From IMG/VR virus record IMGVR_UViG_2974787780_000001: DNA of 31,809 bases, one strand, 5' to 3'. Below, one piece after another: positions 2,658-23,061 of this stretch. Within the stretch, counting starts at the first letter, position 1. Every line of letters begins with the position of its first letter. The translations under genes were made by a program, and so were the position numbers. The notes beneath the pieces were generated by a model. It was given only the letters and a program-made list of their open reading frames with translations. It ran no database searches and was not told where the DNA came from. This DNA comes from a virus. Its lineage: Duplodnaviria; Heunggongvirae; Uroviricota; Caudoviricetes; Peduoviridae.

Positions 2658-3739
2658 AGCTCTTTGATTGCCCTTGAAATAAGGGCAATCAGATTTCTGT
2701 TACTGTCGTGTATTGCGCGTCTTACAGCATAATGGTACGCACGTTTATTTCGCACATCTCCATCTAGCTTTTCCATATCAAATTCATAACCCATAGTAGT
2801 TGCAACAATCTGAAGAAATAATCGTATTGAACGACCATTACCATCTTGAAAGGGGTGGATCCATGCGATTTCTGCATGGAGAGTAGCTAGTTTATGAACT
2901 AACTCTGCTTTAGAATTTATTTTGCTAAGTTCTTTTTTTGTGCAACCTCTAAGACAGGCTTTTAATGATTTTTTGACTTCATTATGTTCCATTGTTGGTC
3001 GCTCTTTATCTCCAACAACAACGGGATGGTTTCTGTATTCACCTGCCCAATCATAAATATGGCCAAAAAGAGCTTTATGGCATTCTAAGATCGTCTTTTC
3101 ATTAATTGTTTTATTTTTGTCGGAGACATAATTTATTATGAGCTGCGTACTTTTGATATATGAAATAACCATTTCGGCAAATTCAACTTGGTATTGGTAT
3201 TTTGCAAATACTAGATTTTTTGTTGCCATGTATTCATATCTTTCATTTTTTCCGTCACGTAAAAGAAAAATGTTGTCTTTTTGGTGCTTTACTTTGATTA
3301 CATGATTGCGTTGAAATGGAAAGTTTTTGTCGTGAGGCAATATGTGAAAATAAGTTTCTTTTTTTAGCTTGTCTACACCAACAATTGAACCAAAAAGAAA
3401 AAGGGCTGCTGTTGTATTAAATAAAACACATACGGAGTCGCCAAGTTGTATCTCTTCGCGACTTAGATCGCATGTTTTTTTCTTATAATTAAATAAATGG
3501 GCGATAGATGGTATGCTGTGATGATTGCGCAATGAACCTGAGCCACATATGACTTCTTTTGTCCTGCTATTCCAGTAATAATTAATGCTTCTCTTATTCT
3601 CTTGTGTTCTTTTTATATGAACCAACTTGAAGCTAAGTAGGCTTAAAGAGAATTCACCATTCTTTTTGACTATATTAACTTTTTGGTGTTTCATTTTGTT
3701 TTTTGTTAGTGTTATTGAAAAATGTTTTGAAGGTATCAT
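2654..3739 (-). CDS. Fic/Doc (Fido) domain protein with ~200-aa N-terminal domain of unknown function; candidate cargo toxin/defence effector
   Basis: 361-aa ORF; C-terminal half contains HPFQDGNGRSIR, matching the Fic active-site consensus HxFx(D/E)GNGRxxR, preceded by the Fic-typical HKALFGHIYDWAGEYR helix. Region is visibly AT-rich versus flanking phage genes. Start codon uncertain (no clear Shine-Dalgarno). Confidence 0.8.
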   Translation of the reverse strand: MIPSKHFSITLTKNKMKHQKVNIVKKNGEFSLSLLSFKLVHIKRTQENKRSINYYWNSRTKEVICGSGSLRNHHSIPSIAHLFNYKKKTCDLSREEIQLGDSVCVLFNTTAALFLFGSIVGVDKLKKETYFHILPHDKNFPFQRNHVIKVKHQKDNIFLLRDGKNERYEYMATKNLVFAKYQYQVEFAEMVISYIKSTQLIINYVSDKNKTINEKTILECHKALFGHIYDWAGEYRNHPVVVGDKERPTMEHNEVKKSLKACLRGCTKKELSKINSKAELVHKLATLHAEIAWIHPFQDGNGRSIRLFLQIVATTMGYEFDMEKLDGDVRNKRAYHYAVRRAIHDSNRNLIALISRAIKEL

Positions 3740-4121
3740 GTTTTGAGTAAGAATGCATGGTTATTATAACATGTTGGAGTTTTATCGCTAAAAAATGGAT
3801 GTAGTGAGAAGTTTGTTGCTCATGACATTTACACTTAAGATGAACAGGAGGTGCTGTTTCGGTAAGATTATCTTTGTCCCATCACATAGCACAGCTCAAT
3901 TTATCACTCATATCTTCATTTCCTTCCAGTGACAACACAAAGCTTTAAAGTCACCTTCTGTGATGCTGCTTTATGTCATTTCATAAGATCAGAGTTATGC
4001 ATGCATTAGGTGCATGGCTTTGCATGTATCAGAATTATACGTTTTCGGCGTCCGACATCACAGCTAGTTTGGATTCAGAGATGTCATGCAACCGCATTAA
4101 AACCTCCACATGAAGCGGGCG

Positions 4122-4140
4122 GGCGAGGCGGGGAAAGCAC
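4122..4140. other. cos: cos site (19-nt cohesive-end sequence, P2 type)
   Basis: Exact string GGCGAGGCGGGGAAAGCAC, which I recall as the P2 19-nt cohesive end; located next to the 3' end of Q as in P2. Confidence 0.7.
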
Positions 4141-4280
4141 TGCGCGCTGGCGGTGGTGCTGATTTTATTTTTTCAGCGTCTGAGCGCGTCGTGATGGCGT
4201 TTAGATTGTGCGCCGGGGGTTGGTGTGTCTGCGGGCTGTTTTGTGCGGTGGTGAGTGTGTGAGGGCGTGATGACGGGCTG

Positions 4281-4303
4281 TAAAAAAGCCGCCCGCAGGC
4301 GGC
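4281..4303 (-). terminator. Rho-independent terminator downstream of Q
   Basis: On the minus strand: GCCGCC-TGCG-GGCGGC hairpin followed by T6, directly after the Q stop codon. Confidence 0.5.
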
Positions 4304-4308
4304 GATGT

Positions 4309-5343
4309 TCAGCCGTTGTCAGTGTCCAGTGAGTAGTTTTTAAAGCGGATGACCTCCTGACCGAGCCAGCCGTTTATCTCGCGGATCCTGTCCTGTAACG
4401 GGATAAGCTCATTGCGGACAAAGACCTTTGCCACTTTCTCAATATCACCCAGCGACCCGACGTTCTCCGGCTTGCCGCCCATCAACTGAAAGGGGATGCG
4501 GTGCGCGTCCAGCAGGTCTGCGGCACTGGCTTTTTTGATATTAAAAAAATCGTCCTTCGTCGCCACTTCACTGAGCGGGATAATTTTAATGCCGTCGGCT
4601 TTTCCCTGTGGGGCATAGAGAAACAGGTTTTTAAAGTTGTTGCGGCCTTTTGACTTGACCATGTTTTCGCGGAGCATTTCGATATCGTTGCGATCCTGCA
4701 CGGCATCGGTGACGTACATGATGTATCCGGCATGAGCGCCGTTTTCGTAATACTTGCGGCGGAACAGCGTGGCTGATTCATTCAGCCAGGCAGAGTTAAG
4801 GGCGCTGAGATATTCCGGCAGACCGTACAGCTCCTGATTAATATCCGGCTCCAGCAGGTGAAACACGGAGCCGGGCGCGAAAGGTGTCGGCTCATGGAAG
4901 GACGGCACCCACCAGTAAACATCCTCTTCCACGCCACGGCGGGTATATTTTGCCGGTGAGGTTTCCAGTCTGATGACCTTACCGGTGGTGCTGTAACGCT
5001 TTTCCAGAAACGCATTACCGAACACCAGAAAATCCAGCACAAAGCGGCTGAAATCCTGCTGGGAAAGCCACGGATGCGGGATAAATGTCGAGGCCAGAAT
5101 ATTGCGTTTGACGTAAATCGGTGAGCTGTGATGCACGGCAGCACGCAGGCTTTTTGCCAGACCGGTAAAGCTGACCGGTGGCTCATACCATCTGCCGTTA
5201 CTGATGCACTCGACGTAATCCAGAATGTCACGGCGGTCGAGTACCGGCACCGGCTCACCAAAGGTGAATGCCTCCATTTTCGGGGCGCTGGCGGTCATTT
5301 TTTTTGCCGCAGGTTGCGGTGTTTTCCCTTTTTTCTTGCTCAT
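4309..5343 (-). CDS. Q: Portal protein gpQ
   Basis: 344-aa ORF, same length as P2 gpQ; adjacent to cos and upstream gene P on same strand; start overlaps P stop by 1 nt. Confidence 0.92.
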   Translation of the reverse strand: MSKKKGKTPQPAAKKMTASAPKMEAFTFGEPVPVLDRRDILDYVECISNGRWYEPPVSFTGLAKSLRAAVHHSSPIYVKRNILASTFIPHPWLSQQDFSRFVLDFLVFGNAFLEKRYSTTGKVIRLETSPAKYTRRGVEEDVYWWVPSFHEPTPFAPGSVFHLLEPDINQELYGLPEYLSALNSAWLNESATLFRRKYYENGAHAGYIMYVTDAVQDRNDIEMLRENMVKSKGRNNFKNLFLYAPQGKADGIKIIPLSEVATKDDFFNIKKASAADLLDAHRIPFQLMGGKPENVGSLGDIEKVAKVFVRNELIPLQDRIREINGWLGQEVIRFKNYSLDTDNG

Positions 5344-19453: not shown

Positions 19454-20581
19454 GTGAAAATGCCCAATAATCATATGTATGCAAGTCTACTGTCTTACAA
19501 AAACTTAAAGATGGCACATCAAGGAAGTAACTTACGGTCTATTACTGAGTTTTCTCTCTATTCAGATAGTCAACCAATTGGGGCGGTTGATGATGATTCA
19601 GTTTATTGTTTTCTGAATATGCTACCCAGGATAACCAAACAATCCACCGTTGCATCTTCAATTACAGTGCGCACAAAGTGGTATAGTGACTTAAATAATA
19701 TGATTCTTTCTAGTTCTCAGAGTCATACAAAGGATTATCATGGTGGATGGTATAATGATGAAATAGCTGCGCTTTCAAGTTTACTGCTTGGTGTCCGTTT
19801 TCATGCTGGGTCAATTACTCGTCACTATGATTACTACACAGGTGATTTCGGAAGGATCCAAGCGGAGAGTTCTTTTCCTCCCGTTTTAGAGTTTAAACAT
19901 AACAAACCTATAGTTCCTAATGCTATCAAAGAAATTGATATAACTAACCTTAAAGAGCTTAACAATTTACATCTCTTAAGTGAAAAGAATTTCAACCATT
20001 TAATTAGAGCAGCCAGAAGCTATCAAAATGCATTATGGATATGCGAGTCATCTCCAAATATGAGTTGGCTATTGATGGTGTCAGCCCTAGAATGTGCGGC
20101 TAATCAATGGGCAAAATCCAATGCGTCTAAAGAAGAAAGATTTAAACATGCCAAGCCTGAATTATATGAAAAATTAGATACCAATGAATTTAGACATTTA
20201 ATCTCTATTATTGCTAATGAGTTTAAAGATTCATTTGGGGCGACAAAGAAGTTTGTGGATTTCTGCCTGTATTTCCTTCCAGATGAACCTCAAGTGAGGC
20301 CAAAAGTAGGAAGAATTGATTGGGGAAAAGAATCGCTATCAACAACTTTTAAAAAAATATATAACTACCGTTCTAAGGCATTGCATGGAGGACAACCATT
20401 TCCTGAGCCGATGTGTTCCTATCCTGAAGTATGGGATGGGTATATTGCTGAACGAGCGAGAGCATGTTCAACCTTAGGTGGAACGTGGTTGAATGAAGAT
20501 GTGCCAATTAATTTAAATACATTCAACTTTATGACCCATTCCATTTTGAATAAGTGGTGGCAATCTTTATTACCAAGTTAA
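19454..20581 (+). CDS. Hypothetical protein, AT-rich cargo gene at the Z/fun variable locus; candidate single-gene defence or lysogenic-conversion function
   Basis: 375-aa uninterrupted ORF (GTG at 19454; in-frame ATGs at 19460, 19475, 19511) in a visibly AT-rich island between G and FI; followed by a perfect 10-bp hairpin and a terminator; no recognisable family motif. Confidence 0.7.
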   Translation: MKMPNNHMYASLLSYKNLKMAHQGSNLRSITEFSLYSDSQPIGAVDDDSVYCFLNMLPRITKQSTVASSITVRTKWYSDLNNMILSSSQSHTKDYHGGWYNDEIAALSSLLLGVRFHAGSITRHYDYYTGDFGRIQAESSFPPVLEFKHNKPIVPNAIKEIDITNLKELNNLHLLSEKNFNHLIRAARSYQNALWICESSPNMSWLLMVSALECAANQWAKSNASKEERFKHAKPELYEKLDTNEFRHLISIIANEFKDSFGATKKFVDFCLYFLPDEPQVRPKVGRIDWGKESLSTTFKKIYNYRSKALHGGQPFPEPMCSYPEVWDGYIAERARACSTLGGTWLNEDVPINLNTFNFMTHSILNKWWQSLLPS

Positions 20582-22058: not shown

Positions 22059-22577
22059 ATGGCAATGCCGCGCAAACTCAAGTTAATGAACGTCTTTCTG
22101 AACGGCTACAGCTATCAGGGCGTTGCAAAGTCCGTCACGCTGCCAAAACTGACCCGTAAGCTCGAAAACTATCGCGGTGCGGGGATGAACGGCAGCGCAC
22201 CGGTAGACCTCGGCCTTGATGACGATGCGCTGTCAATGGAGTGGTCGCTCGGTGGCTTCCCGGATTCGGTTATCTGGGAGCTTTACGCCGCAACCGGTGT
22301 GGATGCCGTGCCGATTCGTTTTGCAGGCTCTTACCAGCGCGACGATACCGGCGAAACGGTGGCCGTCGAAGTGGTCATGCGTGGACGTCAGAAAGAAATC
22401 GACACCGGCGAGGGTAAACAGGGAGAAGACACCGAGTCGAAAATCTCCGTGGTCTGCACCTATTTCCGGCTGACGATGGACGGTAAGGAGCTGGTCGAAA
22501 TCGACACCATCAACATGATTGAGAAGGTGAACGGCGTCGACCGGCTGGAGCAACACCGCCGCAATATCGGCCTGTGA
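22059..22577 (+). CDS. FII: Tail tube protein gpFII
   Basis: 172-aa ORF following sheath gene, P2 FII length. Confidence 0.92.
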   Translation: MAMPRKLKLMNVFLNGYSYQGVAKSVTLPKLTRKLENYRGAGMNGSAPVDLGLDDDALSMEWSLGGFPDSVIWELYAATGVDAVPIRFAGSYQRDDTGETVAVEVVMRGRQKEIDTGEGKQGEDTESKISVVCTYFRLTMDGKELVEIDTINMIEKVNGVDRLEQHRRNIGL

Positions 22578-22633
22578 TTTTCATCCGGTCAGCCTGGCTG
22601 ACCGGTTAACCCCGATTCAGAAGTGAGAAAACC

Positions 22634-22909
22634 ATGAACAAAGAAAATGTGATTACCCTGGACAATCCGGTCAAGCGTGGTGAGCAGGTTATCGAACAGG
22701 TCACGCTGATGAAACCTAATGCCGGGACGCTGCGCGGTGTCAGTCTGGCTGCGGTCGCAAACTCCGAAGTCGATGCACTGATTAAGGTGCTGCCGCGCAT
22801 GACGGCACCGATGCTGACCGAGCAGGAGGTCGCCGCGCTGGAACTGCCTGACCTTGTGGCGCTGGCCGGTAAGGTGGTCGGTTTTTTGTCTCCGAACTCG
22901 GTGCAGTGA
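22634..22909 (+). CDS. E: Tail assembly chaperone gpE
   Basis: 91-aa ORF upstream of tape measure gene, P2 gpE length. Confidence 0.88.
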   Translation: MNKENVITLDNPVKRGEQVIEQVTLMKPNAGTLRGVSLAAVANSEVDALIKVLPRMTAPMLTEQEVAALELPDLVALAGKVVGFLSPNSVQ

Positions 22910-23061
22910 CGTTTCCGAAAAATCTGTCGGTCGATGACCTGATGGCAGATGTGGCAGTGATATTTCACTGGCCGCCATCAGAACTGTATCCCATGAGCCT
23001 GACCGAACTCATCACATGGCGCGAAAAGGCGCTCCGGCGAAGCGGAAACACGAATGAGTAA
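22634..23061 (+). CDS. E': Tail assembly chaperone E-prime, made by programmed -1 frameshift at T_TTT_TTG (22882-22888)
   Basis: Slippery heptamer TTTTTTG at 22882-22888 in E; my hand translation of the -1 frame from 22888 is open to TAA at 23059-23061, giving a 142-aa product (P2 E-prime length) that overlaps the T start. Confidence 0.75.

Follow-up and report, generated by a model that had tools for sequence, protein, structure and literature searches.

The stretch of DNA analyzed here (the window, 31,809 nucleotides) comprises the complete genome of a P2-like phage. Over the first 25,000 bases, it has 100% identity to Yersinia phage VB-YPM-18 (ON146440.1), a Peduovirus with a record of 31,809 bp that is circularly permuted with respect to the window, and likewise to vB_YpM_476A and vB_YpM_476B, both Peduoviruses. 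The locus considered in this work lies in the tail operon, where tube gene, E, E' and tape measure gene succeed each other in the same order as in P2, the position typical of P2-type systems (Table 1). The other neighbors in the operon carry the Pfam families expected of them, namely the tail sheath gene FI, U (PF06995), and D (PF05954).

Table 1. Features of the E/E' locus and of the genes flanking it, in window positions
Feature	Position	Strand	Basis
Gene FII, tail tube protein	22059..22577	+	PF04985 Phage_tube, E=2e-60; P2 synteny
Gene E, zero-frame product of 91 aa, tail assembly chaperone	22634..22909	+	ATG ORF; PF10109; phrog_103; same as P2 gpE
Shine-Dalgarno-like AGGUGGUC, a candidate modulator	22872..22879	+	Ends 2 nt upstream of the heptamer
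Zone with the E frame and the -1 frame both open, 37 nt	22873..22909	+	Flanking stops in each frame
Slippery heptamer T_TTT_TTG	22882..22888	+	Phase from the E-frame codons; same as the annotated P2 site
E' extension, 57 -1-frame codons and TAA	22888..23061	+	Open frame; PF06528; phrog_1756 and phrog_6416
Gene T, tape measure protein, 815 aa	23054..25501	+	PF10145 PhageMin_Tail, E=4e-47

The central feature of the locus is a TTTTTTG close to the end of E, which the E-frame codons GGT (22880), TTT (22883), and TTG (22886) place in the phase T_TTT_TTG. The P-site codon UUU thereby falls at 22883-22885 and the A-site codon UUG at 22886-22888, and each can re-pair one base back. Frame translation locates a stop of the -1 frame at 22870-22872 and the stop of E at 22907-22909; as only the stretch between them is open in both frames, a shift that gives rise to a fusion must fall there, and it is inside this two-frame overlap that the heptamer sits, as is characteristic of P2-type sites. 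Counted from 22888, the -1 frame runs through 57 sense codons to the TAA at 23059-23061, yielding a fusion, gpE+E', of 85 + 57 = 142 aa, whose residues 1-85 are common with gpE. This TAA overlaps the ATG of T at 23054, the overlap reading ATGAGTAA (23054-23061, + strand). The preliminary description of this DNA had arrived at the same heptamer and phase, the same 57 open codons, and the same overlap with T by hand translation, and had staked its proposal beforehand on the absence of a stop codon in the -1 frame across 22888-23058. Codon phasing and translation bear out each of these readings, and there is no stop codon in that interval.

The comparison with phage P2 gives this arrangement its most direct interpretation. 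Over the E+E' span, the two phages differ at 10 of 428 nt (~98% identity), the heptamer and the preceding 60 nt being identical. Alignment of the fusion with P2 gpE+E' shows 140 of 142 residues to be the same, with N29S and S87A as the two differences, and the predicted length likewise agrees with that of the P2 protein, as had been anticipated. The P2 record AF063097 annotates both gpE and a two-piece CDS, gpE+E', described as an essential tail protein that shares the N-terminus of gpE and arises by a -1 frameshift, and it marks the -1 translational frameshift site at the base directly after the heptamer. This joined annotation, taken with the identity of the heptamer, upholds the earlier suggestion that the P2 frameshift is conserved here. 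PMC3091744 describes P2 as shifting at TTTTTTG, with an E of 91 aa and an E+E' of 142 aa as the products, and according to PMC3931495, P2 E' extends into E by 37 nt in the -1 frame and overlaps the T start. Thus, the present locus has in common with P2 gpE/gpE+E' of the FETUD tail operon its genes, their order, the heptamer, its phase, and the 37-nt overlap, as well as the 91-aa and 142-aa products and the ATGAGTAA overlap with T. No functional difference from P2 is detectable, and the two phages differ in isolation host, which is Yersinia pestis here and E. coli for P2. Christie et al. are said to have put the frameshift frequency of P2 at ~10% in 2002, and to have found E' to be essential by complementation. 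On the strength of the sequence comparisons, we consider it very nearly certain that gene E, the tail-assembly-chaperone gene of this P2-like phage, carries a programmed -1 ribosomal frameshift; as such, the frameshift is already known, and is the same as the experimentally characterized case in P2. We infer from P2 that the fusion is also synthesized in the present phage.

The two halves of the predicted fusion belong to distinct families. E matches the Pfam family PF10109 (Phage_TAC_7) with E=2.6e-12 and 47 bits against a cutoff of 25, and phrog_103, annotated as 'tail protein', with E=3e-43. Residues 104-139 of the fusion match PF06528 (Phage_P2_GpE) with E=1.2e-21, and the -1 part additionally matches phrog_1756 and phrog_6416. 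The upstream ORF is accordingly homologous to gpE and its -1 extension to the GpE (E') domain, which is the composition seen in P2-type systems. Neither E nor E+E' matched any NCBIfam model, and a search of PDB sequences returned no relevant solved structure, the best match (E=0.3) being irrelevant. Within E', A105, D106, F111, E125, W129, A133, and R136 are invariant among 18 aligned sequences that share 30-79% identity. A tblastn search with the fusion recovered 422 phage records; query coverage was 80% or more in 397 of these, and among the matches listed, the alignment was split into two pieces, one for each of two frames, in 58 of 60.

A conserved -1 frame could also be read as an independent gene, with E' starting either at GTG 22906 (51 aa) or at ATG 22942 (39 aa). 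The list of open reading frames does contain a GTG ORF at 22906-23061, many genome annotations enter E' in this way ('GpE family phage tail protein'), and several related records give it a short CDS of its own. However, GTG 22906 is not conserved, its place being taken by GTA, CTA, or TTA in most relatives (alignment columns 40-42), and the predicted Shine-Dalgarno (SD) pairing is weak for both starts, at -5.4 kcal/mol for GTG 22906 and -5.3 kcal/mol for ATG 22942, as against -17.8 kcal/mol for U. The present E' is thus devoid of a conserved start codon or ribosome binding site of its own, as expected for a P2-type extension, and in PMC3931495, P2 E' is also reported to be without a ribosome binding site. 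Translation of E' from its own start would moreover leave the invariant in-phase heptamer unexplained. We therefore view an independently initiated E' as extremely unlikely.

The presence of the heptamer as such carries little weight. TTTTTTG is a common string in the window, with 18 copies on both strands against the ~10 expected, a count reached in 0 of 100 shuffles, and this abundance is what speaks for a mere coincidence, in which a T-run and an open -1 frame have come together by chance, without any recoding. We weighed this reading against a curated list of 29 genes comprising 8,866 codons, in which there are 38 in-phase X_XXY_YYZ heptamers with a median -1 open run of 6 codons. The site in E is one of just three of these 38 where the -1 run passes the zero-frame stop, and with its 57 codons it has the longest run of all, being alone among them in having a long continuation. 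Further, this continuation constitutes a conserved Pfam domain, and the whole arrangement is retained in all the relatives examined, so that the conservation data already contradict chance. The bare heptamer is hence uninformative, whereas its surrounding context is exceptional, and a coincidental origin of that context is next to impossible. As a separate observation, 6 of the 18 TTTTTTG copies are clustered at 2934-5306.

Conservation was assessed at two depths: first, in a divergent set of 19 phage relatives including P2, which have 30-98% protein identity, represent many genera, and come from Klebsiella, Erwinia, Burkholderia, Stenotrophomonas, Ralstonia, Pseudomonas, Zymomonas, Vibrio, Mannheimia, and Aeromonas as hosts; and second, in 80 further loci from IMG/VR with 68-99% identity (70 distinct sequences). 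An in-phase X_XXY_YYZ heptamer occurs in the two-frame zone of all 19 relatives and all 80 IMG/VR loci. Among the latter, 77 have TTTTTTG alone, two have TTTTTTA, and one has TTTTTTG together with two more in-phase heptamers; the E' part is 57 codons long in 77 of the 80. The codons of the heptamer are close to immutable across 76 distinct sequences, with GGT and TTT in every one and TTG in 74, the remaining two having TTA, while, with a single exception, the 20 other upstream codons that were tabulated show synonymous variation. GGT accounts for 48% of the other glycine codons of E. The lysine codon at -5 is also nearly fixed, with AAG outnumbering AAA by 68 to 2 in 70 sequences. In the divergent set, 12 of the 19 relatives use TTTTTTG and the rest use TTTTTTT, TTTTTTC, CCCTTTC, GGGAAAG, or AAATTTT. 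As distant relatives thus employ different heptamers, what is conserved, to judge from these alignments, is the predicted slipperiness of the site and not its sequence itself. This conservation, like the anatomy of the site and the homology of its products, is a matter of direct observation.

The diversity of these heptamers also bears on the level at which the shift would occur. RNA polymerase slippage, adding one U at the T6 tract, would generate a fraction of mRNA in which E+E' is encoded in a single frame; the run of six Ts at 22882-22887 invites this reading, and the product predicted from it (...GFFVSELG) would be the same as the ribosomal one, or differ from it solely in having Phe for Leu at residue 85. 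A weak hairpin followed by a T-run at 22861-22888 was also flagged by a terminator scan. However, terminator-like matches in the region number 11 against 8.7 in shuffles, which is no excess, and the bacterial cases of transcriptional slippage discussed in PMC5009743 involve ~9 A or T residues, the T6 tract being shorter. More tellingly, CCCTTTC, GGGAAAG, and AAATTTT in the distant relatives suit the re-pairing of tRNAs and not slippage of the polymerase, and such heptamers lacking a long homopolymer therefore favor tandem tRNA slippage. The event is likewise called translational in the P2 record and in PMC3091744. We accordingly regard slippage during transcription as very improbable. The hairpin picked out by the terminator scan (22861-22888, + strand) is itself weak and G-U-rich, and its T-run is the slippery site.

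On the preferred reading, that of a ribosomal shift, most ribosomes would finish at the E stop and release the 91-aa gpE, while a minority, by inference, would slip back by one base on U_UUU_UUG with tRNA-Phe on UUU and tRNA-Leu on UUG. The slipped ribosomes would then resume with GUC at 22888 and continue through the remaining codons of the -1 frame to produce the 142-aa gpE+E'. Residue 85 would be Leu if both tRNAs slip after decoding, and Phe if the shift precedes decoding in the A-site. The efficiency of the shift would set the ratio of gpE to gpE+E'.

The preliminary description had likened this arrangement to lambda G/GT, a comparison supported by PMC5009743, which calls the P2 system the counterpart of the lambda one. 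As in the lambda class, the two products of the -1 shift have a common N-terminus and are encoded between the major tail (tube) and tape measure genes, where gpG/gpGT are encoded as well. Lambda, however, is a siphovirus, whereas the present phage, which carries a sheath gene, has a tail of the contractile type, and PMC3931495 reports no detectable sequence similarity between the tail proteins of P2 and lambda, although the functional analogy does not require any. By analogy with gpG/gpGT, gpT, the tape-measure protein on which the chaperones presumably act, would become coated by the E part common to both products, and the E' domain would bring in FII, the tail tube subunit, for polymerization; both gpE and gpE+E' would subsequently leave the completed tail. 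The ratio of the two products in lambda is ~30:1, and PMC5009743 reports the efficiency of P2-type systems to be 2- to 3-fold higher than that of lambda. The same paper holds that neither of the lambda chaperone products is present in mature virions; hence, lysates of infected cells, rather than virions, would be the fit material for detecting the fusion.

With respect to elements that might stimulate the shift, we found no conserved downstream RNA structure in the window and the 19 relatives, and no Rfam family was matched across the whole window. At 20 loci, the predicted folding of the 60 nt that follow the heptamer is no more stable than that of shuffles (z from -1.3 to +2.0). A wider span of 102 nt gives z ~ -3 because of a stable hairpin at 22939-22981 (+ strand) within E' (CUGAUGGC...GCCAUCAG), in which codons for Leu-Met-Ala pair with codons for Pro-Pro-Ser. 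We rejected this hairpin as a frameshift stimulator: it begins 51 nt downstream of the heptamer, shows almost no covariation, with one compensatory pair (three cells, L095-L097), and is destroyed in ENT90 by synonymous changes that leave the amino acids there identical; it is kept in the P2/186 clade and absent from distant relatives. It is thus probably incidental, and the rejection of a downstream stimulator agrees with what PMC3091744 says of P2.

On the 5' side, the SD-like AGGUGGUC could form 8 consecutive pairs with the 3' end of 16S rRNA, in a duplex predicted at -14 kcal/mol, which puts it among the strongest 0.4% of all 16-nt windows across the operon. Comparable motifs are present in about half of the 19 divergent relatives and absent in six, and the pairing is stronger than in synonymous recodings (Fisher p=0.0015 across 19 lineages, which are not independent). 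The lysine codon of the SD-like stretch is AAG in 68 of 70 sequences, and the late genes of the phage prefer AAA by 91 to 38. The spacing between AGGUGGUC and the heptamer, however, is 2 nt, whereas the spacing known for the stimulation of -1 shifts is 9-14 nt. The best-known point of comparison is E. coli dnaX (A_AAA_AAG), which shares with the present site both a tandem-slippage heptamer of the form X_XXY_YYZ and an upstream SD-like element. In dnaX, the SD element acts from 9-14 nt upstream and is aided by a 3' stem-loop, whereas in E, the SD-like stretch nearly abuts the heptamer and no conserved 3' structure accompanies it; further, the dnaX shift shortens the protein, whereas that in E lengthens it. 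The idea that AGGUGGUC is a hitherto unrecognized 5' modulator of the P2-type site, which could pause the ribosome or place it under tension on the slippery codons, strikes us as rather unlikely. If true, it might explain how a mediocre heptamer without a 3' structure reportedly shifts more than that of lambda. In reporters in E. coli, the most efficient heptamers do not include U_UU.U_UU.G (PMC4066793).

The junction with the tape measure gene suggests a possible further consequence of the shift. The overlap of the E' stop with the T start is kept as ATGAGT(A/G)A in 77 of the 80 IMG/VR loci, and the SD pairing of T, at -3.7 kcal/mol, is the weakest of six gene starts in the operon and close to the background mean. 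The translation of T may be coupled to the termination of frameshifted ribosomes; if true, such coupling would tie the dosage of T to that of E+E'.

We regard the locus as a further confirmed case of a recoding event that is conserved universally, without any new principle, and its value as lying chiefly in annotation and engineering. GenBank ON146440 (VB-YPM-18) lists E but not E+E', two identical records of 31,809 bp (OR545058/9) have just a 'hypothetical protein' under the match, and in the records of many relatives, E' stands as a small gene by itself. With E+E' absent or split in this manner, an essential tail-assembly protein is missing from these records or mis-described in them. Anyone recoding, codon-optimizing, or engineering P2-type phages or tailocins should leave GGT TTT TTG unaltered and the -1 frame unbroken. 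Opposite E/E' lie two antisense ORFs, one of 129 aa and the other of 120 aa (22589-22978 and 22606-22968, - strand), both longer than E, such that a gene picker relying on the longest ORF loses E to them; they are likely spurious and a trap for gene callers.

Two other elements of the tail region are recorded here as side observations. The 56-nt gap between FII and E contains a perfect 10-bp inverted repeat, CCGGTCAGCC-T-GGCTGACCGG, at 22585-22605 (+ strand), with no T-tract after it; P2 has one A-to-G change in this repeat, where the pair would stay as G-U. The repeat may have a part in the processing or stability of the mRNA, or may serve as an attenuator that separates the abundant sheath and tube genes from the low-copy genes downstream. 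Farther upstream, between the tail-fibre genes and FI, at the position of the non-essential Z/fun gene of P2, the ORF 19454-20581 (+ strand) encodes a protein of 375 aa with a GC content of 35-38%, against ~50-59% in the flanking tail genes. It had no match in Pfam, NCBIfam, PHROGs, or PADLOC, and was found in only six phage records, 'hypothetical' in all of them. It looks like an orphan cargo gene, with a role possibly in defence or lysogenic conversion, and is arguably of more interest than the frameshift.
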